32,000 nt of DNA from Ktedonobacterales bacterium. GTDB lineage: Bacteria > Chloroflexota > Ktedonobacteria > Ktedonobacterales > JADMIN01. Both the position numbers and the translations under genes were made by a program. This document shows positions 7,783-32,000 of the stretch, in pieces (position 1 is the first letter of the stretch; each line of letters begins with the position of its first letter). Under the pieces are notes generated by a model. The model had not been told where the DNA came from, did no database searches, and saw only the letters and a list, made by a program, of their open reading frames with translations. The DNA is taken from NCBI GenBank assembly GCA_030167145.1, contig CP126532.1:3000001-3032000 (forward strand). Direction: 5' to 3'.

Positions 7783-7849
7783 GCGCAGTCCGGGCAACGT
7801 TGAACGTGTCGTATGCAAATGAAGCGTGTAGAAGGAGCGGGGTAGCCCT

Positions 7850-8257
7850 ATGGCCAACACTGATGTGCCCGACGATCTGAAGTACGCCGATACCCACGAA
7901 TGGGTGCGCGTGCAGGGTGACGAAGCGACCATTGGCATCAGCGAATACGCCCAGGACGAGCTAGGCGATGTCGTCTATCTCGATCTGCCGTGGGATGACG
8001 CCGGGCAGCGCGAGCTACGTATTGGCGACCACTTCGGCGACATTGAATCGGTCAAGGCCACCTCTGAGCTATTCATACCCATCAGCGGCACGCTCCTGCG
8101 GGTGAACGATGCGCTCAAAGCCGCGCCGGAGCAGGTCAACAGTGACCCCTACGGCGCGGGTTGGATGCTCGTCGTCAAGCTCAGCGACCCCGCTGAACTG
8201 GCGAAACTGATGGACGCCGCCGCCTATGCCAAGTTTCTCGAATCCGAAGGCCACTAA
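7850..8257 (+). CDS. gcvH: Glycine cleavage system H protein (lipoyl carrier)
   Basis: 135 aa with the lipoyl-lysine motif IESVKATSEL. GAAGGAG RBS at ~7831-7837. Confidence 0.95.
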   Translation: MANTDVPDDLKYADTHEWVRVQGDEATIGISEYAQDELGDVVYLDLPWDDAGQRELRIGDHFGDIESVKATSELFIPISGTLLRVNDALKAAPEQVNSDPYGAGWMLVVKLSDPAELAKLMDAAAYAKFLESEGH

Positions 8258-8276
8258 CGCCTGGCTTTCCCATCGC

Positions 8277-8334
8277 GTAGGGGCGTCCGGTGGACGCCCG
8301 CCACCGAGACCGTAGGGGCGTCCGGTGGACGCCC
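8277..8334 (+). repeat. Two tandem REP-like family A hairpins (35-bp period) in the gcvH-gcvPA spacer
   Basis: gtaggggcgtccggtggacgccc occurs at 8277-8299 and again at 8312-8334. Each copy is GTAG plus an 8-bp stem GGGCGTCC/GGACGCCC with a 3-nt loop. Confidence 0.8.
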
Positions 8335-8398
8335 ATCATCACACAATGGCCGCTCGCATCACCGTTAACGACAGCATTTCGTAGAGGAAACATCGCTT

Positions 8399-16166: not shown

Positions 16167-16350
16167 TTCCGGTGTTCATCCTCACGTTGCGCTGAATACT
16201 CGTTTCCCTGTACATACGCCAGGATCGGCGCGTTGCTCACCAGATAGCTCTGCCCGATACGGAAAGCGCATGAAATATTCGCGCCCCGCCAGACGTATGA
16301 TAGAAGTTCACAAGAAGTATAGCCAAGCATGGACATTTCTATCCAAATAG

Positions 16351-16359
16351 TGCTATACT
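16351..16359 (+). promoter_or_regulatory. Extended -10 promoter of tnpA (probably leaderless mRNA)
   Basis: TGcTATACT at 16351-16359. The ATG at 16366 lies 7 nt after the -10, with no SD sequence in between. Confidence 0.45.
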
Positions 16360-16365
16360 CTTGGC

Positions 16366-16971
16366 ATGAAGTTGAGTGAGTATGCTCGCCAACACGGGAT
16401 TAGCTATAAGACGGCTTGGCGCTGGTGGAAAGCGGGCAGGTTGCCAGGCAAGCAGATGCCGTCAGGAACAGTCATCCTCTTGCCTGAACAACCCGTGGTG
16501 TCGCAATCGCCACAGGTGGCTATTTATGCCCGTGTCTCTTCGGCAGAAAATCGCCGCAACCTCGAGCCACAGGCACAGCGGGTGGCAGCGTATTGTGCCG
16601 CACGTGGGTATCAGGTGCAGCAGGTTGTGAAAGAAGTGGGATCAGGCGTCAATGATAGCCGCCCCAAATTTCTCTCGCTGCTGGCCGATACCACGGCAAC
16701 AGTGATTGTGGTGGAACACAAAGATCGGGCAACACGCTTCGGATTTCGCTATCTAGAAACCTTGTTAGCGCAACAAGGGCGACGGATGGAAGTGGTGAAT
16801 CTGGCGGAGAATGGGCAAGAGGATCTCATTGCCGATCTGGTCGCTATCGTGTATTCGTTTAGCGCGCGCCTGTATGGACAGCGACGGGCAAAGCGCAAGG
16901 CGATTGCTATTCAAACGATCTTAGAAGGTGAGGATCAGCGCGATGCAACTGGTGGAACAACATCGCATTGA
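16366..16971 (+). CDS. tnpA: IS607-family serine recombinase transposase
   Basis: N-terminal MerR-like HTH (MKLSEYARQHGISYKTAWRWWKAGRLPG) followed by a resolvase-type catalytic core (VAIYARVSSAENRRNLEPQ...). Confidence 0.9.
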   Translation: MKLSEYARQHGISYKTAWRWWKAGRLPGKQMPSGTVILLPEQPVVSQSPQVAIYARVSSAENRRNLEPQAQRVAAYCAARGYQVQQVVKEVGSGVNDSRPKFLSLLADTTATVIVVEHKDRATRFGFRYLETLLAQQGRRMEVVNLAENGQEDLIADLVAIVYSFSARLYGQRRAKRKAIAIQTILEGEDQRDATGGTTSH

Positions 16972-18160
16972 CCGCCATGATCCCCGCTTTGCGCAGATTG
17001 ACGCTGCCGCCTTTGCGAGCAAGAACCTCTATAATGCGGCACTGTATCAGATGCGTCAGCACTATATCAAGGACCATGCGGTCATTACGTACAGCGACTT
17101 GGATAAGCTGATGCAGCCCAGCACGGAATATCGGGCATTGCCCGCTAAGGTCGCGCAATGGATACTCAAGCAAGTGACGCTCGCTTGGAAAAGCTATCTT
17201 GCCGCGTGTCGTGAATGGCAAGTGCATCCCAGCAAGTTCCTGGGCCATCCCAAACTCCCAAAATATCTGGACAAGCAGGGGCGCAATCTGCTAACCTATA
17301 CCGATCAGGCGATTAGCCGGGTGAAGCTCCGTCAGGGGGTCGTGGACTTTTCGGGCCTTACCATCGCAGTCAAGACGCGGCACGATCTGCCTGCTCAAGT
17401 GCGCATCGTGCCGCATGCTACCCACTACACGGTCGAGGTGGTCTACGAACGCGCACCCGTTCCTGCTGATGTCGATCCCACAGTGATTGCTGGGATTGAT
17501 CTGGGTGTCAACAATTTGGCGACGATAACAGCAAACCAGCCCGGCTTTGTGCCGCTTCTGGTTAACGGTCGCCCGCTCAAAGCATTGAACCAGTGGTACA
17601 ACAAACGACGCGCCGATCTGCAAGCGAAGCTCCCCAAAGACCAGTTCACCTCACGACAGTTGGAGATCGTAACTGACAAGCGCAAACGACAGATCGATCA
17701 CTATCTGCATGTTGCCAGTCGGCAGATCATCGCTGTGCTGGTGCGGCACCGCATTGGCACGCTGGTCATCGGCAAGAATGACGGCTGGAAGCAGCAGGTG
17801 AACCTGGGCAAACGCACGAATCAGACCTTTGTTTTCCTGCCACATGCACGGTTCATTGACATGCTGACCTACAAGGCACAGTTAGTCGGCATCACAGTTA
17901 TCCCTACCGAAGAGAGCTACACCAGCAAATGTAGCTTTTTGGATAACGAGTCGATAGAGCATCATGATCAGTATGTGGGCAGGCGGGTCAAGCGCGGGCT
18001 ATTCGTCTCGGCAACAGGGCGCAAGGTGAATGCCGATGTCAACGGCGCCTACAACATGATTGCCAAAGTGGTCCCAAATGCGGTGTTCCGCAATGGGAGA
18101 GCGGGTGTGGTAGTTCACCCGGTAGGGCTTGCCCTGCGTAACCGAGAACATGTGGCATAA
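16943..18160 (+). CDS. tnpB: TnpB (IS605 OrfB-type RuvC-like, RNA-guided nuclease family)
   Basis: Track ORF 16928..18160; ATG 16943 (MQLVEQHRI) is probable. RuvC-I is IAGIDLGVNNLA, RuvC-III is NADVNGAYNMIA, and the central region reads YTSKCSFLD. Overlaps the tnpA 3' end. Confidence 0.9.
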   Translation: MQLVEQHRIDRHDPRFAQIDAAAFASKNLYNAALYQMRQHYIKDHAVITYSDLDKLMQPSTEYRALPAKVAQWILKQVTLAWKSYLAACREWQVHPSKFLGHPKLPKYLDKQGRNLLTYTDQAISRVKLRQGVVDFSGLTIAVKTRHDLPAQVRIVPHATHYTVEVVYERAPVPADVDPTVIAGIDLGVNNLATITANQPGFVPLLVNGRPLKALNQWYNKRRADLQAKLPKDQFTSRQLEIVTDKRKRQIDHYLHVASRQIIAVLVRHRIGTLVIGKNDGWKQQVNLGKRTNQTFVFLPHARFIDMLTYKAQLVGITVIPTEESYTSKCSFLDNESIEHHDQYVGRRVKRGLFVSATGRKVNADVNGAYNMIAKVVPNAVFRNGRAGVVVHPVGLALRNREHVA

Positions 18161-18200: not shown

Positions 18201-18236
18201 CATATCGTGCGCGCCGTATCGCTGGAAGGATGCCCT

Positions 18237-19997
18237 ATGCCCCGCCGCCGATTCGCCATGTGGCTCTGGTCGTTGCTGTCATTGCTCGCATTGGCGCTGG
18301 TCGCGCCGCTGAGCGCAGCGCCCACGGTCCGCGCCGCGCCATCACAGCGGAGCCAGAGCGCGCCGCCCGACCTGCCAGCGGTAGACCCCAGCTACATCTA
18401 TGACCAGCTCTTCCACATGGCCACCTCGTTCCAGCGGCGCGAGTCAGGCTACGACAACAACCTCCCGGTGAACGTCAACGGCCACGACGAATTCGCCGCC
18501 TACTGGACGCAAGAGATCACCAGCGATCTCGCGGGCTTCGGCGCGACGGCGCGGCGCGATAGCTTCCCGATTCAGGGCTGGCGCGGTCGCCCCGCCACGG
18601 TCCCCGCCCTTAATGTCGAGGTCACGGTGCCCGGCCTCATCCACCCTGAGCAGGTCGTCGTCATCGGCTGCCACTATGATGGCGAAGCCTCCTCCACGCA
18701 ATCGGCCAACGACGACGCCAGCGGCTGCGCCATTGAACTGGGCGTGGCGAAGGCGATGGCGGCATACTGGCGTGCGCACCACGTCTATCCGGCGCGCACA
18801 CTGCGCTTCGTGCTCTTCGACGCCGAGGAGCAAGGGCTGTACGGCTCATTCCACTACCTCAACGACACCATCAACGGCGACACCGCCAATGTGGTGGCGA
18901 TGTTCAACGAAGAGCAGAACGGCATTGCCTATCCCTTGCGCTTCCTGGGCAAGTTGAGCAATCCGCTGCTGCCCTTCTACGTAGACCTCGCGCCGCTGAC
19001 CAGCAGCCAGCTCTACCCCAATCAGGATACGCTCGCGCCCGCGCAAAAAGCGGCGATCACCGGATTCCGCGCGCTCTCGCAGCAGTCCTATGCGGCGGTC
19101 TTCGCGCAGTTTCAGGCGCTGGGCTATGCCACGCTGGCCTATACCGACACGGCGGGCAAGGCCGTCACGCAGCCAGTCTTCGCCCCCGACGCGCTGAACA
19201 ACGTGCAACCCGAAGACGACACCCTCGGCAGCAGCGATCAGGTGCCATTCACGCTGGCCGGGCTGCCCGCCGTCACCTACGTTGGCAACTCCACCTACTA
19301 CGACCAGGATAGCCCCCCGCCGTGGTCCTATCCCTACGACCAGCCAACCGATACCATCCAGTTGATGAACACCTTCGCCAGCGGCAGTTCGGCCAAGGCC
19401 CCCGCGCTAGAGCTTGCGCTGGCGCTGCCGGGCATGCTCACCGCGTGGATGCTCAATCAGCCCGCCATCCTCGGCGCCGCGCCCGCCGATGGCAAGCCGC
19501 TGGCGGCGATCAGCGATGTCGGCCAGCTCCAGCCGGGGCAGCCCGTCGCGCTGGATGCCAACGCTTCGTTCGATCCAGCCAGCGCGGGCGCGCTGGCCTA
19601 CGCCTGGGACTTCGGCGACGGCGCGACGGCCAGCGGCGTATCCGTGACGCACACCTACGCCAGTGCGGGCACGTACACGCTCACGCTCACAGCCCGCGGC
19701 CCATCAGGCACGCGCGCGGTACGCAAAACCCTCACCGTCACCGCGCAGCCGCCAGTCTACGCCAACCCCTACGCGCAATACGCATCCAATGGCCGCCCGC
19801 CCGCGAATCCCCAAGTGACACTGCCACAGCCCAACGACACACCAGTCCCCTCATCCCCCGTCCCACACGTGACACCCGGCCCCCCTGTGTCATCTTCGGG
19901 CGTGCCGCTCTGGCTCTGGCTGGTGGGCGCGCTGGTCGTCATCGCCGCACTGTCGGCGCTGGGCCTGGCGCTGAGCGGGCGGCGCAAGCAATCATGA
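18237..19997 (+). CDS. Secreted, C-terminally anchored M28-family metallo-aminopeptidase with a PKD domain
   Basis: ATG 18237 after GGAAGGA, with a signal peptide. M28 zinc-ligand motifs are VVVIGCHYDG, NDDASGCA and FVLFDAEEQGLYGS. The PKD motif is YAWDFGDGATASGVSVTHTYASAGTYTLTLTA. The C-terminal TM helix is followed by SGRRKQS. Confidence 0.85.
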   Translation: MPRRRFAMWLWSLLSLLALALVAPLSAAPTVRAAPSQRSQSAPPDLPAVDPSYIYDQLFHMATSFQRRESGYDNNLPVNVNGHDEFAAYWTQEITSDLAGFGATARRDSFPIQGWRGRPATVPALNVEVTVPGLIHPEQVVVIGCHYDGEASSTQSANDDASGCAIELGVAKAMAAYWRAHHVYPARTLRFVLFDAEEQGLYGSFHYLNDTINGDTANVVAMFNEEQNGIAYPLRFLGKLSNPLLPFYVDLAPLTSSQLYPNQDTLAPAQKAAITGFRALSQQSYAAVFAQFQALGYATLAYTDTAGKAVTQPVFAPDALNNVQPEDDTLGSSDQVPFTLAGLPAVTYVGNSTYYDQDSPPPWSYPYDQPTDTIQLMNTFASGSSAKAPALELALALPGMLTAWMLNQPAILGAAPADGKPLAAISDVGQLQPGQPVALDANASFDPASAGALAYAWDFGDGATASGVSVTHTYASAGTYTLTLTARGPSGTRAVRKTLTVTAQPPVYANPYAQYASNGRPPANPQVTLPQPNDTPVPSSPVPHVTPGPPVSSSGVPLWLWLVGALVVIAALSALGLALSGRRKQS

Positions 19998-21485: not shown

Positions 21486-22184
21486 ATGACACGACAGAGC
21501 AAGACCCGACAGCAAGCTCCTCGCGCCACTAGCCGCACAGGCACTGGCGGAGGCAAGGACATGACAACAGTAATGGACGCCAAAATGGCGCTAGTGAAGG
21601 CGCGCGACCTCGGCCAGCCGGACGCGCTGGGCACAGTTCTCGGCACGTATCCCGCCTCCTACACGCCCGACCTGATCGAATTCGACGCCGGGCTGGTGGC
21701 GACCAGCGGCTACGCCAACGAAACGCCCACCCCAGAGACCGAGAGCATCGCTGCGCGGGCGCTCTCCAGGGCCTTCGCGCATATTTTCGTCGAACCGGCG
21801 ATAGCCACCGGTCCGCTCGCCGCCGCGCAAGGCGCCCTCGCCACACTGCGCGGCCTGCGCCGGGCACGCGGCCTGACACCGCGCGTGTTGGGCCAGAAGA
21901 TCGGCCTCGGCGTAGACATCATCAGCAGCCTGGAGGCCGGCATGATCCGCGTCGTCTCCATCCCCGACCGGCTGATCCGCGCGCTCAGCGACGCGCTCGG
22001 CACAACCGTCGAGCAGATGCAGAACGCCCTCGCCACCCAGCCGATGGTCGAGCCTGCCCTGCGGCGCGACCAAACGCGCGGCGGCCAGCACACCTCCGAG
22101 CAATCCGCGATGGATTTCGCCGACGCCGTGCGCGTCAGCCCAAACATGACCGACGCCGAAAAATCCACCTGGCTCGGCGAATAG
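21486..22184 (+). CDS. XRE-family HTH protein
   Basis: Track ORF 21429..22184. ATG 21486 follows GGGAGAG, 17 nt after the sigma-gene stop. HTH_3-like segment LRGLRRARGLTPRVLGQKIGLGVDIISSLEAGMI. The N-terminal ~130 aa have no recognised motif. Confidence 0.65.
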   Translation: MTRQSKTRQQAPRATSRTGTGGGKDMTTVMDAKMALVKARDLGQPDALGTVLGTYPASYTPDLIEFDAGLVATSGYANETPTPETESIAARALSRAFAHIFVEPAIATGPLAAAQGALATLRGLRRARGLTPRVLGQKIGLGVDIISSLEAGMIRVVSIPDRLIRALSDALGTTVEQMQNALATQPMVEPALRRDQTRGGQHTSEQSAMDFADAVRVSPNMTDAEKSTWLGE

Positions 22185-22236
22185 CACCGCCCCAGCCCCT
22201 CTCATTGCAAGCGGGCAGCGTCTACTGCTGAATATC

Positions 22237-22260
22237 CCCCAGCCAGTTCGCTGGCTGGGG
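22237..22260. terminator. Bidirectional terminator-like hairpin between convergent genes
   Basis: ccccagccag-ttcg-ctggctgggg: a perfect 10-bp GC-rich stem with a UUCG tetraloop. No clear U-tract on either side. Confidence 0.45.
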
Positions 22261-22264
22261 CGCA

Positions 22265-22328
22265 GTTGTAGCGCCGCCGTCCCGGCGGCTCGCGCCCACC
22301 ACATCCGTACCGCCGCCGTCCCGGCGCC
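22265..22328 (+). repeat. Two REP-like family B elements (GTAG/GTAC + GCCGCCG-TCC-CGGCGGC hairpin)
   Basis: gttgtagcgccgccgtcccggcggctc (22265-22291) is identical to 29927-29953. A second, degenerate copy gtaccgccgccgtcccggcg lies at 22307-22326. Confidence 0.8.
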
Positions 22329-22338
22329 CCCCCGCGCG

Positions 22339-25300
22339 CTACTCCTCCTCGCCCGCCGCCTCCTGCCCCATGCGATACTTGATATCGTAGTTGATGATGA
22401 AGTCGAGCTCCTCCTCCGTGAAGCCGTAGTGCCGCGCCAGCACGCGGTCTATCTCGTCTATGATGGGCTTGGAGAGACGCGGCTGGAATGTTTGGATCGT
22501 TAGCACTCCAAACTTCCCATAATTATTGGTGAGTGACTTGGAATTAGAAGCGAAGTCCTTCATTACCTGAATGCTTAGACCTTGCAGTGCTTTCGCAAGG
22601 CTTGGTCTAATCTCGTCAATAGTACATGGGAATGCCTCGATCTCGCGACGGTTTACATTACGAACATCAGAGTATGTGCAAAAGAACCAGAAGAAGAGGC
22701 TAGAGTTTAGGATTGCAAGGACAAGATCCCGATGCAACACAGAACCTAAATGGACTTCCTTGAGTTCTGAGGGTTGAAGCTTTTCGCCACGTGAGTCTGT
22801 AATCCTTGGAATGAAGTCAAGAAACTGAACGAAATACCTCAGTTTCCTTGTATAATAAACTACCGATTCCGAGTGAGGCACAAAGAAGGATCTCAGCGGC
22901 TTCTGCTTGCTGAGTCGTTCGAGAATACTTGTCTCTCTGGCAGTTGCCACTTTAGGAATAGCACTATTTACCGAGGTTCTATCATCGCTTAGCGATGCGA
23001 AAGTGATAGTCGCGAAGAGGATATCTCGCTCTTCACTGAACCACCTTCTATAGTTAGATACTTGTAGTCCTTCCCCATGTCGCACATTCCGCATCAACCA
23101 AATTGTTAGGCGCTTTTCAACACCAGTGAAAAGTTTGGATGGGCGCTCTGCGAAGCTGAGATTCCACGAAAGCCGCCCAGGATGAATCAAGCATGCTCTC
23201 AGATCATCGAAGCCATCTGTGCTAACTACTGAGACAGGTACGATCATGCCCATTGCCCCGTCATGGCTCAACAGGCCAGTAGACCGCTCCATAACAAATG
23301 AGTAAAGGTCACCGCACTTTTCTGTGAGGAACCCTTTTATCGAATACTGGTTCTGGATGTTCTTATACTCCACATACGGCGGATTCCCAATAATCACGTC
23401 GAAGCCGCCGCGCGAGTGGACGATGCCATAGAACTCGACGAACCAGTGGAAGGGCTGGTGGCTGGCGCGCCACGGCTCGAAGGCGAAGAGGTCGTTGGGG
23501 TCCACGCCGTATTCGCGCGCCAGGTAGCCGTTCAACACGGCGTTGAGGTCGTCCAGGCTGCGGCGCAGGTCGGCTTTGTCCTTGTGGGTGATCTCGCCAC
23601 CATAGGTCGTCTGCTGGTCGCGGAACTGTTTAAACTTGCTGGCGGCAATATCGGCTTTCTCGTTGATGCGCCGGAGAATCTCCTCGTCTTCTGGATAGGG
23701 CATGCGCAATTGGCCGTTGGGACCGCCGTACATCATGGCGTCGCGGACGGCATCCAGGGTGGCGAAGCCGACCAGCGTGTTGCCAGCGCGGATGTTGAAG
23801 TCAATATCGGGCAGCGGCTCCAGGTTCGCCTTGTCGTCCACCTGGGCGACGAGCTTGAGGAAGAGGCGCAGCTTGGCGATCTCGCAGGCTTCGGCCATGA
23901 TGTCTACGCCGTAGAGGTTGTTGACGATGATCGTCTTCAGGATGGCGTAGCGCGGGTTGGGGTGCTGCTTGACCGAAGCGAGAATGGCGCGGAGGTCGGG
24001 CGCGGAGCGGCTATCGCCGAGGCGGTCATAGTCGGCGACAAAGGCGCGCATGCGGTCCAGGGCGGCGGTGTAGAGCGGTTCGAGGATGGTGAGCGCCGCG
24101 AAGAGGAACGCGCCGGAGCCGCAGGTGGGGTCGAGGATGGTGATGGAGTTGAGCGCCTGCCAGAAGGCGCGCAGCAGTTCCACGCCCTCGCAGCGTTCGA
24201 TCACGTCGCGGGCGAAGCGTTCGATGTCGAGGTTGTAGGTAATCAGGTCGTTGATGCTGGTGATCTCGCCAGCGGCGAGCTTCGCGCGCAACTCGTGGCA
24301 GCGGGTGCGGCGGGCGACATACTCGCGCCAGGTTTCGGTGGGCAGCGCGTAGCTTGCGGCGGCGGGGCGGTTCCAGCCGCTGCGCTGGGCCACGTCGCCG
24401 ATGCCCGCCGCGATGTCTTCAGGGAGATCGAGGTCTACGCCCCGGCGCACGGCTTCGTAGATGTAGGCGTCGGGGTCGTCGCGCAGCAATCGCCAGACTT
24501 CGCCGTCGGGCGCGAAGGCGACCTTACATTTCTCGCGGGCGGAGTCGAAGAGGAAGGGCAGGATCGTGTTGCGGCCAATGTAGCCGGTGATATCCTCTTT
24601 GGTGTAGTACGCGCCCATCTGCTTCTGGTTGATGTATTTCTCGAAGATATAGCCCAGCACGTCGGGGTTGATCTCTTTGTCGGAATGTTTCTCGTCGTGA
24701 TGCTCGGTATCCAGATGCCAGTGGTATTCGTCGAAGAAGGCGAAGACGCGGGCGAAGGCGTCGTCGGGGATAGCGATGGCGGGGTTGGCAGCTTCGATCT
24801 GGTGGACCTCGAAAAGGCCGCCGTTGACGTAGGGGATGTCGCCGATCAGCGCGGCGAGGTCGTCGGCGCGTTCGGCGCGCGGCTGGCCGAGGCCCTCGTG
24901 GAAGAAGCGACGCAAGAATTCACGATAGAAGCGGTCGAACTGGCCGTCGCCGTGGCGCTCGCGGACCAGCTTCAGTCGGTTGGGCAGGTAGTTGGTGTCG
25001 CCGTCGAGAAAGTCCTTCTTCTGGATGAAGTAGGTGAACATCAGGCGGTTGAGCATCAGCGAGGCGTACCAGGCGCGCTGATCGTCGCTGGCGATGCCTT
25101 CGATGCGTTTGAGGAAGGCGTCATGTTCGGTCTTGAAGCGGTCGTAGAAGCGTTTGGTAGTGCGCTCCACATCGAAGGAGCCGGAGACTTTGCGAGCGAC
25201 ATCGAGAATGGTGAGGGTCTCTTCGTCGGCAATGTCTATGGCGAAGTCGCGCAACCGCTGCACGAGCGCCTCGCCAGTCTGCCCCGCGAAATAGGGCTGC

Positions 25301-25656
25301 TCGCGGACCGCGATGGGCTTACCGGGCTGGCGCTTCACCCACTGCCAGATCTGGCGCGTACGCTCACGGTCTACGAAGATGATGAGATGCTCGCGGGCGA
25401 GCTTAGTCACCTGGCTCTCGATCTGCTTGCGGGTGCTGTAATCCGGGATGCCGCCGCGCGGGTCGGGGTCGCAGAGCAGCACGGAGAAGCCGCGCTTCTG
25501 GGCGACGTGGCGCAGGATATAGGTCTCGCCGCCAGCGACGACGCTCAGCGTGTTGGCGGGAGGGTTATCCCAGCCTAGCTCTTCGATGAAGAGCGCGGTG
25601 AAAGCGAAATCTTTGAGGCAGGCACGCATGCGACTGGTAGCAACAGCAACAGCCAT
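22339..25656 (-). CDS. Large gamma-class N6-adenine DNA methyltransferase (Eco57I/TaqI-like) with an N-terminal unknown domain and a C-terminal TRD-like region
   Basis: Track ORF 22339..25827. I place the start at ATG 25656 (MAVAVATSRM..., GAAGGAG RBS 10 nt upstream), because the longer form overlaps the upstream gene by 120 nt. Motif I is ILDPTCGSGAFLF, motif IV is VIIGNPPYVEY, and the conserved tail reads RHYGFTEEELDFIINYDIKYRMG. Confidence 0.9.
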   Translation of the reverse strand: MAVAVATSRMRACLKDFAFTALFIEELGWDNPPANTLSVVAGGETYILRHVAQKRGFSVLLCDPDPRGGIPDYSTRKQIESQVTKLAREHLIIFVDRERTRQIWQWVKRQPGKPIAVREQPYFAGQTGEALVQRLRDFAIDIADEETLTILDVARKVSGSFDVERTTKRFYDRFKTEHDAFLKRIEGIASDDQRAWYASLMLNRLMFTYFIQKKDFLDGDTNYLPNRLKLVRERHGDGQFDRFYREFLRRFFHEGLGQPRAERADDLAALIGDIPYVNGGLFEVHQIEAANPAIAIPDDAFARVFAFFDEYHWHLDTEHHDEKHSDKEINPDVLGYIFEKYINQKQMGAYYTKEDITGYIGRNTILPFLFDSAREKCKVAFAPDGEVWRLLRDDPDAYIYEAVRRGVDLDLPEDIAAGIGDVAQRSGWNRPAAASYALPTETWREYVARRTRCHELRAKLAAGEITSINDLITYNLDIERFARDVIERCEGVELLRAFWQALNSITILDPTCGSGAFLFAALTILEPLYTAALDRMRAFVADYDRLGDSRSAPDLRAILASVKQHPNPRYAILKTIIVNNLYGVDIMAEACEIAKLRLFLKLVAQVDDKANLEPLPDIDFNIRAGNTLVGFATLDAVRDAMMYGGPNGQLRMPYPEDEEILRRINEKADIAASKFKQFRDQQTTYGGEITHKDKADLRRSLDDLNAVLNGYLAREYGVDPNDLFAFEPWRASHQPFHWFVEFYGIVHSRGGFDVIIGNPPYVEYKNIQNQYSIKGFLTEKCGDLYSFVMERSTGLLSHDGAMGMIVPVSVVSTDGFDDLRACLIHPGRLSWNLSFAERPSKLFTGVEKRLTIWLMRNVRHGEGLQVSNYRRWFSEERDILFATITFASLSDDRTSVNSAIPKVATARETSILERLSKQKPLRSFFVPHSESVVYYTRKLRYFVQFLDFIPRITDSRGEKLQPSELKEVHLGSVLHRDLVLAILNSSLFFWFFCTYSDVRNVNRREIEAFPCTIDEIRPSLAKALQGLSIQVMKDFASNSKSLTNNYGKFGVLTIQTFQPRLSKPIIDEIDRVLARHYGFTEEELDFIINYDIKYRMGQEAAGEEE

Positions 25657-25674
25657 GTAAATTGTACTCCTTCT

Positions 25675-25699
25675 GTAGCGCCGCCATCTCGGCGGCTCG
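25675..25699 (+). repeat. REP-like family B variant in the 49-bp helicase-MTase spacer
   Basis: gtagcgccgccatctcggcggctcg: GTAG plus a GCCGCC/GGCGGC stem. Confidence 0.7.
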
Positions 25700-25705
25700 A
25701 TGCTG

Positions 25706-28700
25706 TCACTGTGAGAAGAGGCCAAGCGAGCAGATAAGCTGCGGCTCGCGGCTTGTGGCATCGTCTTGCGTATGACAGAGGCGATCTTCGTTGCGCAGGG
25801 TGATGACCAGTTCGGCAAGTATCTCATCGCTGATACCGGCCTTGAGCTGGCGGTTGAGCGTATCTATGGCGGACTGGCGCAGCGTAAAGCGATAGATGTC
25901 CTCAATAGCGCGGGGCAGTTCTTCCGATTCCCAGAGCGTGCCCTTGATGCGCTCGTTGAAAGATTTGAGGCGCTCATAGGTGCGAAAACGCGCGCCGGAG
26001 GGGCGGCCAAGCTGGCCTCCGATGTGTTGCTCTTCAGCGGCAAGGTGGCGCATGCCAGCAAGCACCAGATCGTGGTGGGCCGGGTCGCGCGGCACCGCCG
26101 GGGTGTCGGGCGCGCACTCGGCGGCGCGGAGGATGGTAAGCTGCGATTGCGTGACGGCATTGCCCTGGCGGTTCATCCAGGCGAGGGCGTCATTGCCCTC
26201 GGCGGTACGAACGTAGACGAGCACACCTTCGGGCGCGCTGGGCGTGGGCGTGTGGGCGCGGCTGGAATAAACGACGGGCGGCAGGTCGGGGATGGTTTTC
26301 TGGAGCGATGGGTCGCGGTCAATGGCGTTCTTCCAGATCTGATAGGCCTGGGAGGTGAGGTCTATTTCGGTATCGGCGTCGCCGTCGAGGATACCAGCCT
26401 TCTCGTTGTAGATATCGAGGATCGGGCGGTCGTCGCGGTCATCTTCGAAGAACGATTCATCGGTGCCGACCACCTCAGCGTTCTCGCGCAGGCGCTGGCG
26501 CACGCGCGAGCGGAGGCGGATGATACGCTCCACGCCATCGGCGGGCAGGAACGAGAGGCAGCGAATCTCATGGGCCTGCTGGCCGATGCGGTCCACACGC
26601 CCGGCGCGCTGGATGAGGCGGATGATGGCCCAGGGCAGGTCGTAGTTGACGATGATCGCACAGTCTTGCAGGTTCTGGCCTTCGGAGAGGACATCGGTGG
26701 CGATCAGCACGCGCAATTCATCGTGTGGGGCGATGGCCTTGCCATTGCTGAGCGGGCTGAAGCGCCAGGCGAGGGCGGTGGGGTCGGCGGAGTCGCCAGT
26801 GACGCCCGCGAGCGCGGATATACCGCGCGCCTGGAGTTGCGTGGTGAGATAGCGGACGGTATCGGCGAACTGGGTGAAGATGAGCACTTTGTCGTTGGGA
26901 TAGGTTTGGGTGAGGAGCGTAGCGAGCGCGTTGAGCTTGGCATCGCGCGCAGCATCCCACGGGCCACAGGTGGCGAGCACGCTGAGCAGGGCATGAGCAT
27001 CGCGCAGCAGGTGCTCGCGCAGGTCGGCGACGAAGAGGCCGGGGCGCAGCCACTTGAAGCGCTTGCGATACTGTCTGGCATAGCCGCCATAGATCTCAGC
27101 GGCACGGCGGCGATAGTCGTCTTCGGTGCGCAGCGCGCTGGTGACGCTCGCGGACTGCTCTTCTATCTCGTCATCTTCAAGGCCAGGGAGGACGGCGTCG
27201 GCATCTTCGTCGTAGGCGCGGGTATCGAGCAATTGCGGCTCCTGCGTGCCAAGCGGGAGATCATGGCCGGTCTCGATGGCGTGCAGGTAGACGAAGTTGC
27301 GCAGGATGTGGCGCTCGATGGATTCGATAAAGGCGGGGCCACCGCTTTCGAGCCGCTTGAAGAGGTTGGTACGGCAGAAGCCCATCAGACGCTTGCCCGC
27401 ACGCGAGAGACCGGCAAGCTGTTTGGCTTCCGCCTGGGTGGGGGGCTTATCCGGCGTAGGGGCGACGTAGTTGCCGAGACCGTAGCGCGGGAGATAGAGC
27501 GCGTTCACGGCGTCTACCACGCGCCCGGAATAGAGGCGGGCGTAGGGGTCGGCGGGGTCGCCGTCGTTGATGGTAAACCTGATGGTCTGCGGGACACGCG
27601 CCGGGAAGTATGAGCGCGTGCCATCGGGGAAGGTGAGGAAGGTGCGCCCGTTGGTAGGGTCGGTCTGGGCGTAGTTTTGCTGGATGAAGCCGCGCGTGCG
27701 CCGGACCATGTAGAGGCGCATCAGGTCGCGCCAGTCATCTGCGTATTCGCTCTGCTCGAAGGCGGCGAGCGAGCGCACGGGGCACTGGTGGCGGCGAACG
27801 AACTCGGTCTCGCCAAGCTCGGCAAGTCGCTTTTCGGGGCGGATGCCAAGGTCTTGCTCTGGCGGGACGAAGAGGCGCAACTGCGCGGAGAGATCGAGAT
27901 AGGTCTTGTTATAGGGCGTGGCGGTGAGCAGAATGCAGCGACTATCGTTCTGCTCGATGTACTCGCGGATGGCTTTGTAGCGGCTGCCCTCGCGGTTGCG
28001 CAGGTTGTGGCTCTCGTCAATGAGCACGAGACGGTAGCGGCGCAGGTCTGGGAGTTGCTGCATCACCTGGCTGACGGAGAGGACTTTGGCGATGAGGCGA
28101 TAGCGGGCGACGTAATCTTCCCACATCCTGACGAGGTTCTTGGGGCAGATGATGAGGGTTTCCCAACTGTAGTCGTCCTGAAAGACGCGGGCGAGCGCGG
28201 TGGCCATGAGCGTCTTGCCGAGACCGACGACATCGCCGATAAGCACGCCCGCGCGCTTGTTGACGTGATGCGCCGCGATGCGCACGGCGGCCTGCTGGAA
28301 CTCGAAAAGCTGATTACCAAAGTCGCGGGGAACGTGGAACTGAGAGAGGCCCGCTCGCGCTTCCTGGGAGAGATGGTAGGCGATCTTGAGATAGATGCAA
28401 TAGGGTGGGAGCAGGTCTTCACGCGCCCAACTGGTATCAATGATGTCCGCCAGCTCATCCGAGATGTCGAGGCACCAGCGATCCTGCCAGCGGTCGTTGA
28501 ACCACTGCTCCAGCTTACGCGCGGCGTCGTGTTCCAAAACGTCAACATTCAACTCACCCTGCTGTTTCAGCCCGGCGAAGGTGAGATTGCTGCTGCCAAG
28601 GAAGCCAGTGATGGGGTTGTTGAGATCATCGCGGAAGAGGAGATAGAGCTTGGCATGCAGCGCGTGCCGCAGATGCAGCTTGACGATGACTTTTCTGGCG

Positions 28701-29068
28701 CGAAGTTGGGCGCTGAGGCGGCGCAATGCAGCCTCGTCGGCGTCGGTAGGGATACCATGTGTGAGTTGTTCGCGGAAATCGGCGGCAGCGCGCTTCTTGA
28801 GTTGCAGCACCTGCGCCTGGTCAACCGCAGCGCCGCCGCTCAGGCTGAGGGCTGCGCGTAGCTCATCCTGCGGTAACTGCTGCATACCAACAAGCACACG
28901 ACAGCATGCGCCCTCACCACCTGCCCAGCGTTCGACGATGGGGTCTATGGTCCGCCAGCCGCGGAGGTTGAAATAGCCGACGCAAAAGTCCGCGCGCTGA
29001 GCGGTTTCGAGTGTACCGCGCAATGTGGAAAGCAGGTCCAACTCGATGTTATCGAAGATCCTGGGCAT
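25706..29068 (-). CDS. PLD(HKD)-family nuclease domain fused to an SNF2/SF2 helicase-translocase
   Basis: 1120 aa. There is a single N-terminal HKD motif (HALHAKLYLLF ... GSSNLTFAGL). The SF2/SNF2 motifs are GDVVGLGKTLMA (I), LIDESHNLRN (II), LLTATPYNK (III), SEGQNLQD (V) and QRAGRVDRIGQ (VI). A ~250-aa C-terminal extension has no recognised motif. Confidence 0.9.
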   Translation of the reverse strand: MPRIFDNIELDLLSTLRGTLETAQRADFCVGYFNLRGWRTIDPIVERWAGGEGACCRVLVGMQQLPQDELRAALSLSGGAAVDQAQVLQLKKRAAADFREQLTHGIPTDADEAALRRLSAQLRARKVIVKLHLRHALHAKLYLLFRDDLNNPITGFLGSSNLTFAGLKQQGELNVDVLEHDAARKLEQWFNDRWQDRWCLDISDELADIIDTSWAREDLLPPYCIYLKIAYHLSQEARAGLSQFHVPRDFGNQLFEFQQAAVRIAAHHVNKRAGVLIGDVVGLGKTLMATALARVFQDDYSWETLIICPKNLVRMWEDYVARYRLIAKVLSVSQVMQQLPDLRRYRLVLIDESHNLRNREGSRYKAIREYIEQNDSRCILLTATPYNKTYLDLSAQLRLFVPPEQDLGIRPEKRLAELGETEFVRRHQCPVRSLAAFEQSEYADDWRDLMRLYMVRRTRGFIQQNYAQTDPTNGRTFLTFPDGTRSYFPARVPQTIRFTINDGDPADPYARLYSGRVVDAVNALYLPRYGLGNYVAPTPDKPPTQAEAKQLAGLSRAGKRLMGFCRTNLFKRLESGGPAFIESIERHILRNFVYLHAIETGHDLPLGTQEPQLLDTRAYDEDADAVLPGLEDDEIEEQSASVTSALRTEDDYRRRAAEIYGGYARQYRKRFKWLRPGLFVADLREHLLRDAHALLSVLATCGPWDAARDAKLNALATLLTQTYPNDKVLIFTQFADTVRYLTTQLQARGISALAGVTGDSADPTALAWRFSPLSNGKAIAPHDELRVLIATDVLSEGQNLQDCAIIVNYDLPWAIIRLIQRAGRVDRIGQQAHEIRCLSFLPADGVERIIRLRSRVRQRLRENAEVVGTDESFFEDDRDDRPILDIYNEKAGILDGDADTEIDLTSQAYQIWKNAIDRDPSLQKTIPDLPPVVYSSRAHTPTPSAPEGVLVYVRTAEGNDALAWMNRQGNAVTQSQLTILRAAECAPDTPAVPRDPAHHDLVLAGMRHLAAEEQHIGGQLGRPSGARFRTYERLKSFNERIKGTLWESEELPRAIEDIYRFTLRQSAIDTLNRQLKAGISDEILAELVITLRNEDRLCHTQDDATSREPQLICSLGLFSQ

Positions 29069-29118
29069 CGCAAGCGGCTTTCTTCAGTGTAGCAAGTGAA
29101 GCGGGAATCGCGCTGTTC

Positions 29119-29147
29119 AGTATACACGCTGACCTCTTGGCGCGCAA
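29119..29147 (-). promoter_or_regulatory. Candidate promoter for the PLD-SNF2 gene
   Basis: On the minus strand: TTGCGC (complement of 29142-29147), 17-nt spacer, TATACT (complement of 29119-29124). It lies ~50 nt upstream of ATG 29068. Confidence 0.45.
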
Positions 29148-29165
29148 TGGCTGAGCGCGCCGCGA

Positions 29166-29191
29166 GTTGTACCGCCGCCGTCCCAGCGGCT
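29166..29191 (+). repeat. REP-like family B variant (GTAC) between the DprA-like and PLD-SNF2 genes
   Basis: gttgtaccgccgccgtcccagcggct: two mismatches relative to the 27-mer at 22265 and 29927. Confidence 0.7.
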
Positions 29192-29206
29192 GGCGAGACG
29201 CCTGCG

Positions 29207-29845
29207 CTACACGACGAGTGGCCAGAGGGTTGCGACGCCTGCGGGGCGAACGGGGCGAGCGCCGAGAGCAAGAAGGCTGGCGTTGTGGTCGTCTTCAAGG
29301 GTGAAGAGCGGTTTGCCCCAGGTGACGATCTCGCTGGTGAGCGCCTCAATTTTGCCGCCGGGGGAAGCATAGGCGGCAAAAACAGCAGTGGCGAGCGCGG
29401 CGGCGAAGCGGTTGCGTGTGAGGGCGGTCGCGGCGGTGAGGCGTGGCGCATTGTCAAATGGCGAGAGGATAAGCAATCGTCCCTGCTCGATGGGTGCGCG
29501 CCAGGCAGCGGGGAGGCGCATGCGAGCGATGTCACGTGCGGGGCAGAGGATAACAGGCTGGGAGCCGCGCAGCAGCAGGCGCAGGCATTCGCGTTCCATC
29601 GGCGAGTGGAAGCCGCCAATCACGGGGATGCCAGCGTCGCGCAGAGCAATGGCGAGATCGTAGGCAGCGAGGATGATGGAACCGGGACAGCGAACAGAAC
29701 AGAGAAAGGCAAGCGAAGGCCGGAGCAGTATGGCAGGGTCGCCAATAGCAATGAGCGTGGGTAGCGTAGTGAAGGCTGACCGGACGCCCGCCGGATACAA
29801 CGGGGAATCCGGCGTGATGCGCACTTGCTGTCGCGGTGCGGTCAT
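29207..29845 (-). CDS. Stand-alone DprA/Smf-like (SLOG/Rossmann) domain protein
   Basis: 212 aa; ATG 29845 with GAGAGGAGG upstream. The layout matches the DprA Rossmann core: LAFLCSVRCPGSIILAAYDLAIALRDAGIPVIGGFHSPMERECLRLLLRG..PVILCPARDI...GRLLILSPF...RNRFAAALATAVFAAYASPGGKIEAL. It lacks the N-terminal SAM and C-terminal DML1/winged-helix domains of competence DprA. Confidence 0.65.
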   Translation of the reverse strand: MTAPRQQVRITPDSPLYPAGVRSAFTTLPTLIAIGDPAILLRPSLAFLCSVRCPGSIILAAYDLAIALRDAGIPVIGGFHSPMERECLRLLLRGSQPVILCPARDIARMRLPAAWRAPIEQGRLLILSPFDNAPRLTAATALTRNRFAAALATAVFAAYASPGGKIEALTSEIVTWGKPLFTLEDDHNASLLALGARPVRPAGVATLWPLVV

Positions 29846-29871
29846 AGTGCGAGCGGCCTCCTCTCAGCGGG

Positions 29872-29880
29872 ATTGTATCA
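29872..29880 (-). promoter_or_regulatory. Extended -10 promoter for the DprA-like gene
   Basis: The minus strand reads TGaTACAAT (complement of 29880-29872), ~27 nt upstream of ATG 29845 with the RBS in between. Confidence 0.45.
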
Positions 29881-29926
29881 TGCGGGCAGGTGCAGACGGT
29901 GGCCGGAGTCCCGCCTGCGGTACAAG

Positions 29927-29953
29927 GTTGTAGCGCCGCCGTCCCGGCGGCTC
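29927..29953 (+). repeat. REP-like family B element, identical to 22265-22291
   Basis: 27/27 identity, same orientation. It sits between the two divergent promoters. Confidence 0.8.
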
Positions 29954-29989
29954 CTGGGGCGGACCGTCCCGTCTGCCCGCCCGCTCACC

Positions 29990-30018
29990 TTGACCGTATC
30001 GAACGCATGTCCTATACT
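29990..30018 (+). promoter_or_regulatory. Near-consensus sigma70 promoter firing into a gene-less repeat region
   Basis: TTGACC (29990-29995), exactly 17-nt spacer, TATACT (30013-30018). No convincing ORF or RBS occurs for the next ~700 nt. Confidence 0.55.
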
Positions 30019-30107
30019 ACCCCTAAACCCATGCCACCACGCGCGGTGAGCCACAACACGGCGCCGCTCCCCCACCACCCGGAGGAGCGGCGTCCTTCAT
30101 TCTCCAG

Positions 30108-30657
30108 CAGAATCGGCAACTTTGCTCTCCCCTTCCCTACCTCTGCTCTCCCCTTCCCTGGTAGGGAAGGGGTTGGGGGTTAGGTCATTGCGGCGAAAAA
30201 ATGAAACAGCGGCGAAAACGGCGAAAATCGCAAAAACGAAAAATCGGCAGAATCGGCAACTGCCATCATCTGCAATTGCGAGCATCGGCCATATCGGCCA
30301 CTGGTGGGGCAGACATTCCTGTCTGCCACTCCGGCCATATCGGCCACTGCCAATCGCCTGCGAACAAGATTACCCACGGCATTCATGCCGAGAGCTTCCC
30401 TCATCATCCGCCTGCCCTTCGCACCGAATCAAAAAATCGGCAGAATCGGCAACTCTGGCAACTGCACAAATCGGCCACATCGGCCATTTCGGCAACTCTG
30501 GCAACTGCCACATACGCGAAATCGCGGCGAAAACGGCGAAAAATCTCCCCCACTTCCCGTCATATCCCGTCATTCGCCCCATCCAACCGCAAAAATCGGC
30601 CAAATCGGCAACTGCCCCTGTGCGGCCATTCCGGCCACTCCGGCCACTCCGGCCAAG
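30108..30657 (+). repeat. Non-coding mosaic array of short direct repeats built on a CGGC(A/C/G)A core with 9-bp spacing
   Basis: I counted 23 CGGC[ACG] cores by hand. Within clusters they are always 9 bp apart (for example 30245/30254, 30286/30295, 30472/30481/30490, 30623/30632/30641/30650). Longer exact modules: 23-mer aaaaatcggcagaatcggcaact at 30239 and 30432 (variants at 30108 and 30591); 20-mer tcggcaactctggcaactgc at 30446 and 30489; 19-mer gcggcgaaaacggcgaaaa at 30209 and 30524; 18-mer cggccatatcggccactg at 30286 and 30332; ccggccact in triplicate at 30631-30657. Confidence 0.85.
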
Positions 30658-30688
30658 AGATGCGGAGCCAAGGATCGCTTGGTGGCAA

Positions 30689-30697
30689 TGGTACAAT
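30689..30697 (+). promoter_or_regulatory. Extended -10 promoter proximal to the 30732 gene
   Basis: TGgTACAAT at 30689-30697, ~35 nt upstream of ATG 30732/30735. Confidence 0.4.
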
Positions 30698-30731
30698 GGA
30701 TAGAATAGGCGAAGTGCGGTCATGGGAAGGG

Positions 30732-32000
30732 ATGATGCGGGTGAACGGGGAGGACTTCTTTTCGCGGACGCCAGTGGACCTCGAAGGCGCAACCGACGCC
30801 GAAGCCGATGCCGCGCTGGGCGCGCTGCTGCATCTCTACCTGCGCGATAGCTTCGACGAGCACAAAGGCTGCTGGCCGGGCCGCGACGAACACGACACCC
30901 TGCGGCGCACCTGCCACGCCGTGGAAGTGCTGCACCGGCTGAACCTCGACGCCGACACCGCCACGATGGTCCGCGCCGGCGGCAACTGGCTCATCAATCT
31001 GCCCGTCTACGACATCCTCTCCCAGGACGACCGCGACCGGCTGCGGCTCTATCCCAGCCGCTTCAAGACACTGGCGTATCTCAAGCGCTTCGACGACGAC
31101 CTCCTGCGCCGCGACTACGCCGATCTGCTGCGCAAAGAAGTCGGCGGCATGGTGCGCGGCGTCACCGAATCGGACGTGCTCACCACCTGCATCGTGCTGG
31201 ATACGCTGGTGACGCTGGAAGAGAACGGGCAGCGCTATCAGGTCTGCTCCAACGAACGCTACGGGCGCATCATCACCGCGCTCAACCAGCAACTTCGCGG
31301 TTGGAAGCCCCCGAGCGCGCATGCCAGCGGCGCGACACGCGCACGGGCGCAATCTGTGGCCACGAGCGAGGCCAGCGCAGCGACGAGCGGCGGACGCAAG
31401 CGCCGCCCCGCGCCGCCCTGCGAAATTGACAACTGGCGCGACCTCAGCTATGTGCTGGGGCTGCTGCTGACGGCGGACCGCACCAGCATCGCGCCGAAGC
31501 AACTGGAGATCGTGACCAACGCGCTCAGCGCGCAGATCAGCGAGCGCACCCGCGCCCACTTCAGCGATCTGGCCCAGGTCCACTACACCGCGCTGCAACT
31601 GGCCGAGCACTTTCGCGGCGAAGAGACGATTCACAGCGCGATCAGCGCACTGCTCGCCGAACTGCGCGCGACCTACGCCACCCCCGACGCGACCCGCCGC
31701 TGGGACTTCTCGTATCACGCGACAGTGATGCGACTGCTGCTGACGCATCACGGCGATAGCGAACTGGCGCGGCGCGTGGTCGCGCGCTATCTGCGCGACG
31801 CCGAGCGCAGGCACGCGGTGGAGCGCGGCACGGTGGACGTGGAGCTGCGCGCGGTGATTCGCGAGCGCATCGAGATCGAGGTCGGGCATGTGATGGAGCT
31901 TTCCGGCGGCTATACCGACGACCACATCTATCGCGTGCCGTTCGTCTATGGGCATCCCGCGCCCGAACAAGATGGCGCGTGGCATCCCCGGCAAGAAGCC
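30732..32000 (+). CDS. Large hypothetical protein (helical-repeat N-terminal region; possible kinase-like domain starting at the window edge); 3' end beyond the window
   Basis: Absent from the ORF track because it has no stop in the window. Manual translation from ATG 30732 is open for all 423 codons with strong GC3 bias: MMRVNGEDFFSRTPVDLEGATDAEADAALGALLHLYLRDSFDEHKGCWPGRDEHDTLRRTCHAVEVLHRLNLD... It ends ...VGHVMELSGGYTDDHIYRVPF, which resembles the Gly-rich loop of APH/protein-kinase-like folds. The listed minus-strand ORF 30720..31994 is its antisense shadow. Confidence 0.75.
   Translation, partial: MMRVNGEDFFSRTPVDLEGATDAEADAALGALLHLYLRDSFDEHKGCWPGRDEHDTLRRTCHAVEVLHRLNLDADTATMVRAGGNWLINLPVYDILSQDDRDRLRLYPSRFKTLAYLKRFDDDLLRRDYADLLRKEVGGMVRGVTESDVLTTCIVLDTLVTLEENGQRYQVCSNERYGRIITALNQQLRGWKPPSAHASGATRARAQSVATSEASAATSGGRKRRPAPPCEIDNWRDLSYVLGLLLTADRTSIAPKQLEIVTNALSAQISERTRAHFSDLAQVHYTALQLAEHFRGEETIHSAISALLAELRATYATPDATRRWDFSYHATVMRLLLTHHGDSELARRVVARYLRDAERRHAVERGTVDVELRAVIRERIEIEVGHVMELSGGYTDDHIYRVPFVYGHPAPEQDGAWHPRQEA

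Follow-up and report, generated by a model that had tools for sequence, protein, structure and literature searches.

A probable Type III-like, ATP-dependent restriction-modification module built from a PglX-like methyltransferase and a PLD-Snf2 protein

A Snf2 helicase and a PglX-like methylase recur as a pair in DISARM, ARMADA and BREX type 3, and ARMADA is defined by a YprA-like helicase, ArmC, beside that pair (PMC12458937). MANTIS needs both MtsA and MtsB for methylation (PMC12839542; MANTIS preprint, bioRxiv 10.64898/2026.09.23.753747), and its MtsD is a dimer with one shared PLD active site (bioRxiv 10.64898/2026.09.23.753747). Here we describe a simpler arrangement in a 32,000-nucleotide stretch of the metagenome-assembled genome of a Ktedonobacterales bacterium (GenBank assembly GCA_030167145.1, contig CP126532.1, 5.07 Mb long, positions 3,000,001 to 3,032,000 of the forward strand; hereafter the window). 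It encodes, side by side, a PLD(HKD)-Snf2 fusion protein, which we call PS, and a 1105-amino-acid (aa) gamma-class N6-adenine methyltransferase, which we call MT. We consider it likely that the two are the core of a Type III-like, ATP-dependent defence module of the restriction-modification (RM) kind, with a frequent third gene and with PglX-like and PLD-Snf2 parts.

The genes for PS, MT and a DprA-like protein are three co-directional open reading frames (ORFs) on the minus strand (Table 1). A first-pass annotation of the window had given their coordinates and motifs, all of which were reproduced by translation of the ORFs, as were the gaps of 49 bp between PS and MT and 138 bp between the DprA-like gene and PS. 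It had described PS as one HKD/PLD motif fused to a complete SNF2-type motor, and this was borne out by Pfam, where PLDc_2 (33.9 bits, cut-off 27), SNF2-rel_dom (50.5, cut-off 24.9) and Helicase_C (56.5, cut-off 23.5) all scored above their cut-offs; a further match, to ResIII, was partial and covered motif II only. The PLD motif comprises HAKLYLLF (aa 138-145) and GSSNLTFAGL (158-167), and the motor comprises GLGKT (282-286), DESH (351-354), TATP (382-385) and QRAGRVDRIGQ (820-830). PS belongs to the PLD/HKD superfamily, with one HxK...GSxN motif per chain, and to the Swi2/Snf2 family, as shown by motifs I, II, III and VI and by structural similarity. The best Foldseek match of its predicted fold was E. 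coli RapA (5e-11), followed by the eukaryotic Snf2 remodelers CSB, Chd1 and SRCAP. Conservation extends over the full length of the protein (mean column identity 73% in 58 homologs, bacterial and archaeal), and H138, K140, G158, S159, S160 and N161 are invariant, together with Walker A/B, motif III and motif VI.

With only one HKD motif per chain, two PLD domains must pair to make an active site, and completion of a PLD active site by pairing is established for Nuc and BfiI. No sequence reader can be recognised in PS itself. Its matches in PADLOC were all partial, namely C3a139 'HKD+Snf2', DrmD (8.5e-35), BrxHII, a PLD-helicase model, DpdE and HmaA. The top match, C3a139, which is a candidate type III CRISPR accessory cluster (PMC6546367), was rejected as the family of PS because it covers only part of the protein. 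A SauUSI-like architecture was rejected as well, since Snf2/RapA proteins dominate the fold search and SauUSI lies outside the top 50 structural matches.

MT was annotated as a 1105-aa methyltransferase with motif I before motif IV, and its membership of the gamma class is confirmed by this order (DPTCGSGAF at aa 509-517, NPPY at 758-761), by the Pfam Eco57I match (2.5e-25) and by a C-terminal target-recognition domain (TRD). Although the ORF could extend to 25827, the Met of 25656 is where homologs start, with M in 83% of them at this alignment position. By profile, the closest solved relatives are BREX PglX/BrxX (PglX 8c45) and M.TaqI, and the S-adenosylmethionine-binding motif and NPPY are invariant in 48 homologs. 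Mean pairwise identity differs between parts of the protein: 0.41 for aa 1-165, 0.62 for the helical region (170-480), 0.55 for the core (490-830), 0.34 for aa 835-1055 and 0.68 for the tail.

The variable part near the C-terminus, which the first-pass annotation had called TRD-like, is not only hypervariable but exchanged between systems whose PS proteins are 98-99% identical. The clearest example is a pair of loci from Prevotella/Segatella (L073 and L074; labels of this form are our numbers for loci carrying PS/MT relatives, that of the window being L001). Here PS and the N-domain of MT are each 99% identical and the MT core 93%, whereas the TRD is only 28% identical. Sequence comparison thus identifies aa 835-1055 of MT as a swappable specificity domain.

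The N-terminal domain of MT (N-domain) is harder to place. Its AlphaFold2 model (pLDDT 87.6) consists of two helices, three strands, a helix, three strands and two helices. Foldseek gave no match against the PDB at E<1e-3 (SAS-6 head, PUR-alpha, Hjc and SPARDA nuclease were insignificant, with TM at most 0.35), profile searches against PDB sequences gave chance antibody matches only, and no Pfam family was found at E up to 5. It occurs in 1578 clusters among 1.84 billion representatives. In the best 150 of these it is N-terminal throughout, bar one multi-stretch match, and the proteins are either about 1040-1190 aa long or short, the short ones being what we take to be gene fragments from short contigs. 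The invariant residues of the domain, L27, G28, W29, W104, W106 and R118, are not a nuclease set, and neither D...(D/E)xK nor any other set of catalytic residues is conserved in aa 1-165; where such residues would be expected, the protein of the window carries G42 and L61. MT nevertheless matches the REBASE-derived PADLOC model PDLC03628 (REase_MTase_IIG) end to end, over 11-1099 of its 1105 aa, with 1227 bits. Of the features of a Type IIG enzyme it therefore shows the family-model match but, as far as its residues reveal, not an active endonuclease domain in the same chain. It looks like a Type IIG-shaped enzyme that would lack a working nuclease.

To what extent do PS and MT belong together? 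Each has at least 8000 homologs. The best 120 homologs of PS are full length, 67-78% identical and come from bacteria and archaea, and the best 120 of MT are 53-62% identical. We scanned one genome per species, which gave 80 loci from many phyla, and clustered the ORFs around 82 loci all against all. MT, N-domain included, adjoins PS on the same strand in all 72 testable loci, with PS first in 65 and MT first in 6. The pairing is the same in archaeal loci, and PS was adjacent in both of the loci that were reached from MT homologs. In compact loci the start and stop codons of the two genes overlap or are 12-49 bp apart. PS and MT are thus an obligate pair.

The only other recurrent neighbour of the pair is the DprA-like family, and, shadow ORFs aside, no further family occurs in more than four loci. 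The Pfam-annotated neighbourhoods contain no DUF1998, DUF499, DUF3780, PglZ or BrxC. Conservation of the neighbourhood across genomes therefore supports the autonomy that the first-pass annotation had ascribed to the module. PS homologs are also found on 34 plasmids (PLSDB records), and none was found in 50,697 phage records.

The pair is fixed, but its members are not always inherited together. PS is 87-92% identical between some distant phyla where the core of the adjacent MT is only 40-59% identical (L014 vs L018; L009 vs L045). PS and MT have thus been reshuffled between lineages. The correlation of identity between MT and PS falls along MT, from r = 0.89 for the N-domain (partial r 0.71) through 0.76 for the helical region and 0.67 for the core to 0.20 for the TRD and 0.06 for the tail. 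We considered this as evidence for co-evolution of the N-domain with PS, and downgraded it, because a steady decay would be produced just as well if recombination breakpoints became more frequent the further one moves from PS. PS also occurs with quite different MTs (L014/L018).

An ortholog of the pair is present on plasmid pSYSX of Synechocystis PCC 6803. There the PS ortholog (pSYSX 43696-47151, WP_011153866.1; 54% identity) precedes a VapBC pair, behind which comes the 1100-aa methylase slr6050. The latter aligns with MT at 51% identity from residue 14 through to the C-terminus. This methylase (M.Ssp6803IV) was tentatively assigned the asymmetric motif GA(m6A)GGC, in which m6A is N6-methyladenine, by elimination and with REBASE; its knockout never segregated and the gene was called essential (Hagemann et al., PMC6105098). 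The neighbouring helicase gene is not mentioned in that paper. Failure to delete slr6050 fits addiction to an active cognate restriction partner, and the ortholog, with its asymmetric m6A motif and failed deletion, supports the presence of such a partner, as the first-pass annotation had implied. Classical restriction endonuclease activity has been described as virtually absent from Synechocystis. Near the pair on pSYSX there is also a cluster encoding a ThiF adenylyltransferase, an E2/UBC protein, a multiubiquitin and DUF6527 (14924-17453 of locus L095; pSYSX 51619-54240), which resembles bacterial ubiquitin-like defence clusters.

The third gene was annotated as DprA-like. Its likeness to the superfamily holds, as does its position upstream of PS, but it is not a true DprA, since it scores below the cut-offs of Pfam (DNA_processg_A, 26.5 bits vs 29.6) and TIGRFAM (TIGR00732, 22 vs 191) and the likeness is confined to the Rossmann part. 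PADLOC matched it to PsyrA (5e-14), and a profile of its family reached solved DprA structures at E of about 0.01 only. To judge from these scores, the 212-aa protein is a divergent member of the DprA/Smf superfamily and nothing more specific. Among the 32 pairs followed by 4 kb of sequence or more, 20 are accompanied by its gene, always co-directional with the pair and normally at the 3' end, downstream of MT. The idea that it is part of the module is thus upheld for about two thirds of loci, but its usual place is not the upstream one seen in the window, which is a minority arrangement shared with L022. Compact PS-MT-DprA operons occur in L094 and L097, which come from one Methanosarcinales archaeon and one bacterial contig of 3.5 Mb.

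Two described proteins are comparable. RqlI/PsyrA is reported to restrain a RecQ-like helicase (PMC4670107), and the DprA-like ShosA neutralises a toxin via binding of single-stranded DNA (ssDNA) and RecA (PMC12961424). Like these, the module has a DprA/Smf-like Rossmann protein encoded beside a genotoxic partner. Unlike them, its protein is only about 210 aa long, with no SAM domain and no PRTase fusion, and the partner is the methylase/PLD-Snf2 pair. By analogy, the DprA-like protein may be an accessory, acting as an ssDNA-binding safeguard or as a regulator of a genotoxic motor-nuclease; we offer this role as a working guess, with low confidence.

MT and the DprA-like gene bracket a slot of zero to three unrelated genes (Table 1). 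Its contents include Gabija, SIR2+HerA, Schlafen/AlbA_2-HATPase (HATPase_c_4), TIR, MTaX1+HNH, HNH, PLD, Macro and RhuM. This pattern of cargo is typical of defence loci, and it seems that the module serves as a frame in which other defence genes are embedded. In a Poribacteria locus (L093, 12639-16592) the C-terminus of MT is fused to a Schlafen-like AlbA_2 domain, giving a protein of 1317 aa; elsewhere AlbA_2 is encoded by a separate gene that adjoins the DprA-like gene (L089, L094). Small toxin-antitoxin-like genes can also lie between PS and MT (L095, 10487-11120; L091, 12403-13007; L092, 12441-12833; L096, 7500-7940), and the genes nested there encode VapBC (pSYSX, L095), DUF433/DUF5615, a 23S_rRNA_IVP protein and DUF29.

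How might the pair work? We propose that MT reads a short asymmetric sequence through its exchangeable TRD and would methylate host DNA on one strand. Methylation of one strand is expected because the motif of the ortholog is asymmetric, and sites in the Ktedonobacterales host would then be hemimethylated. On an unmethylated site MT would recruit or license PS, with its N-domain as the candidate contact; since PS lacks a sequence reader, it must depend on MT for this step. PS would then spend ATP on translocation along double-strand DNA and would cut unmarked DNA where two PLD domains pair into one active site. The domains could belong to a standing dimer or to two enzymes that set out from inverted sites and meet, for which Type III, Type ISP, SauUSI and MANTIS MtsD are the precedents, and cleavage may depend on the orientation of sites. 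The first-pass annotation had pictured a compact, autonomous module in which an MTase/TRD subunit supplies recognition and self-marking and a PLD-SNF2 subunit supplies cleavage. Genetic linkage, TRD swapping and the ortholog all support that picture, in which cleavage, translocation and the PS-MT contact are the steps that we infer.

Several points weigh against this proposal. In the literature we found no cleavage, ATPase, methylation or phage-resistance assay of any member of the PS family, and the structure model of PS is of moderate confidence only (pLDDT 70.9). The correlation between the N-domain and PS may merely reflect recombination breakpoints. For the ortholog, the motif was assigned by elimination only, and the essentiality of slr6050 rests on a strain that still carries PS. 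About one locus in three lacks the DprA-like gene, which is therefore not essential to the core. A further group of points concerns MT itself. The PADLOC model calls it Type IIG, so that a cryptic nuclease in MT is possible; the topology of the N-domain (alpha-beta-beta-beta-alpha-beta...) is compatible with a degenerate PD-(D/E)xK fold; and weak HSDR_N similarity was mentioned for slr6050 (Hagemann et al., PMC6105098). Together with the order of N-domain, helical spacer, gamma MTase and TRD, which mirrors that of MmeI-type enzymes, these points would fit a self-contained Type IIG/IIL enzyme with an N-domain nuclease, for which PS is a separate or auxiliary protein such as a Type IV-like or back-up effector. 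We regard this as unlikely. The N-domain has no conserved acidic/lysine triad and no significant fold match in the PDB or match in Pfam, and the near absence of classical restriction endonuclease activity described for Synechocystis also speaks against it. Moreover, PS is present in every testable locus, tightly coupled to MT and more conserved than it, as one would not expect of an optional helper.

The closest solved relatives of the two proteins, RapA for PS and BREX PglX for MT, also allow the pair to act without cutting DNA, either by BREX-like exclusion or as an epigenetic or transcription-related combination of a RapA-like remodeler and a methylase in which the PLD domain serves another purpose. 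BREX blocks phage without obvious cleavage, and cleavage by MANTIS MtsD was not reconstituted in vitro (bioRxiv 10.64898/2026.09.23.753747). However, the HKD residues are invariant across bacteria and archaea, TRDs are swapped as in restriction systems, the pair has spread horizontally, plasmids included, and the locus harbours nested defence genes and toxin-antitoxin pairs. A methylase that cannot be deleted, as in the ortholog, also suggests that its partner is lethal and not a regulator, and a non-cutting role is very unlikely. It is more improbable still that the pair is a decayed remnant of a class 1 DISARM, ARMADA or BREX-related (Hma/MANTIS) system that has lost DrmA/B, the YprA helicase or DUF499/DUF3780. 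Such an origin would account for the partial matches of PS to DrmD, BrxHII, HmaA and an MtsD-type NCBIfam model, for those of MT to DrmMI and PglX, and for the recurrence of Snf2-PglX pairs in these systems. Against it, the partner genes are in none of the 82 loci or annotated neighbourhoods, PS and MT are intact, full length, highly conserved and abundant, and every equivalog score is far below its cut-off. We therefore retain the RM-like module as the favoured reading.

Table 1. Coordinates of the PS/MT locus in the window, and loci whose slot carries defence cargo
Feature	Position	Strand	Basis or remark
PS, PLD(HKD) nuclease + RapA-like Swi2/Snf2 motor, 1120 aa	25706..29068	-	Pfam, 58 homologs, Foldseek; presumed restriction subunit
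PS N-terminal PLD domain, aa 1-215	28424..29068	-	PLDc_2 aa 24-194, RE_NgoFVII aa 123-192
PS single HKD: H138, K140, G158-S-S-N161	28586-28657	-	invariant residues
PS Swi2/Snf2 ATPase core, aa 250-870	26459..28321	-	motif I GLGKT, II DESH, III TATP, VI QRAGRVDRIGQ
PS C-terminal region, aa 871-1120	25709..26458	-	conserved; mixed alpha/beta; outside every Pfam family
MT, PglX/Eco57I-type gamma-class N6-adenine methyltransferase with its own specificity domain, 1105 aa	22339..25656	-	Pfam, PADLOC, solved relatives
MT N-terminal domain, aa 1-165, with FIEELGWDNP	25162..25656	-	family-specific; candidate PS docking domain
MT catalytic core, aa 490-830	23167..24189	-	DPTCGSGAF 509-517, NPPY 758-761
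MT target-recognition domain, aa 835-1055	22492..23154	-	hypervariable
DprA/Smf-like Rossmann protein, 212 aa	29207..29845	-	frequent third component; without the SAM and winged-helix domains of true DprA
Slot with defence cargo	loci L089, L091, L092, L035, L015, L046, L053, L084		

Around the module, a promoter and terminator scan of 21900-30800 gave nothing exceeding the shuffled expectation. A 75-aa gene (30180-30407, minus strand) lies just upstream of the DprA-like gene and is co-directional with it; it has no Pfam or PADLOC match and is not conserved in related loci. Beyond it, a divergent gene on the plus strand (from about 30732 to beyond 32000; 5665-8337 of locus L001) encodes an 890-aa protein with kinase-like APH and TCAD9 domains and no PADLOC match, TCAD9 being a domain known from nucleotide-dependent conflict systems. 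The listed minus-strand ORF at 30720-31994 was rejected as a member of the module because it is a shadow of this gene. About 4 kb from the module on the other side is an IS607-type element, in which a serine resolvase gene (16366-16971, plus strand) overlaps a TnpB/OrfB_IS605 gene (16928-18160, plus strand) that has a Cas12f-like TNB domain. The remaining content is mostly housekeeping, with an NYN-domain protein, glycine-cleavage T and P subunits and an M28 peptidase with PKD domains (11702-12907, 6520-11231, 18207-19997, all on the plus strand), so that the window does not qualify as a dense defence island.

The module is of interest for several reasons. PS and MT have thousands of homologs, yet present tools see in them no more than a solitary methylase ("Type IIG") and a "helicase-related protein" without a name, and surveys of defence systems therefore probably miscount a common one. 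The pair has no name in any library; PADLOC labels MT alone, and its Type IIG label is probably a misassignment through overall similarity. Assignment by tools to a known type, which the first-pass annotation had listed as a refutation, thus concerns one gene only and is probably wrong. Our full-text literature searches yielded no description of a two-gene system of PLD-Snf2 and Eco57I/PglX-like proteins, although one outside the literature covered is possible. Tentatively, and with slightly more doubt than confidence, we suggest that PS and MT, with or without the DprA-like protein, represent a distinct, unnamed class of ATP-dependent RM system that is widespread in bacteria and archaea. In this class a PglX-type methylase would license a PLD-Snf2 protein directly, without AAA+ loaders or YprA helicases; the DprA-like protein would tie restriction to ssDNA/RecA handling, as self-protection or as a sensor; and the operon would be a docking frame for other defence systems. 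If true, no simpler system would be known among those with a Snf2 helicase and a PglX-like methylase, and the module would bear on how methylation status reaches the effector in BREX type 3, DISARM and ARMADA. Synechocystis PCC 6803 offers a tractable model, in which the unexplained "essential" slr6050 adjoins a PS ortholog, and a swappable specificity domain combined with a single-HKD motor-nuclease is of interest for enzyme engineering.

How does the module compare with named systems? Type ISP enzymes and class 1 DISARM had been put forward at the outset, and both are apt as analogies, but the module belongs to neither. Type ISP enzymes (LlaGI, LlaBIII) have the same inventory of nuclease, motor, gamma methylase and TRD, whereas here it is split over two polypeptides and the nuclease is PLD, not Mrr. 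Class 1 DISARM (DrmA, DrmB, DrmC, DrmD, DrmMI) likewise has Snf2 helicase, PLD nuclease and PglX-like adenine methylase domains. However, in the module the PLD domain is fused to Snf2, and the DISARM core of DrmA and DrmB (DUF1998) is present neither in the window nor in the following 10 kb nor in any related locus. DISARM_DrmD scored 131.5 bits against a cut-off of 610, and the DrmMI match in PADLOC was partial (2.9e-24). The first-pass annotation had reported DrmA/DrmB, HsdS/HsdR and PglZ/BrxC/BrxL to be absent from the window; in our scan, extended to 10 kb past its end, DrmA/B, HsdR/S, PglZ, BrxC, DUF499 and DUF3780 were not found among the scanned ORFs. As for BREX, the module has neither PglZ nor BrxC, and BREX_1_MTaseX gave only 71 bits (cut-off 500). 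ARMADA differs in its third helicase, since no YprA-like ArmC or other conserved helicase accompanies the pair.

The MANTIS/Gao_RL/Type-2 BREX-related systems (MtsA-D) share with the module an N-terminal HKD/PLD domain fused to an SF2 ATPase, an N6-adenine methylase and asymmetric sites, and it is their MtsC/MtsD half that the module would resemble in its mode of action. They are distinguished by the DUF499 AAA+ ATPase (MtsA) and DUF3780 (MtsB), which accompany PS and MT in no locus, and by a methylase, MtsC, of group alpha, whereas MT is of group gamma with its own TRD. The MtsD-type NCBIfam model NF042964 matched PS in its C-terminal lobe only, with 137 bits against a cut-off of 1100. Type IIG/IIL enzymes (MmeI, Eco57I) share with MT the order of N-domain, helical region, MTase and TRD, but the N-domain of MT is without catalytic residues. 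SauUSI (Type IV) and NgoAVII/CglI resemble PS in having a PLD nuclease driven by an SF2 ATPase, with an active site completed by dimerisation. Unlike the module, SauUSI targets modified DNA through a TRD of its own and has no methylase partner, and in NgoAVII/CglI the nuclease bears its own DNA-recognition domain. The methylase of CglI/NgoAVII is a C5 enzyme.

The module thus falls outside DISARM, MANTIS, BREX, Type ISP and Type IIG. Type III enzymes (Mod and Res, e.g. EcoP15I) differ in both of their parts: Mod is a beta-class methylase, whereas MT is a gamma-class enzyme of the PglX/Eco57I type with a large N-terminal extension, and Res is a helicase with a C-terminal PD-(D/E)xK nuclease, whereas the motor of the module is a RapA-like Swi2/Snf2 protein with an N-terminal PLD domain. 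What the module shares with Type III is its organisation as two genes, a specificity-bearing methylase and an SF2 ATPase-nuclease dependent on it, and, as we would expect, asymmetric sites methylated on one strand.

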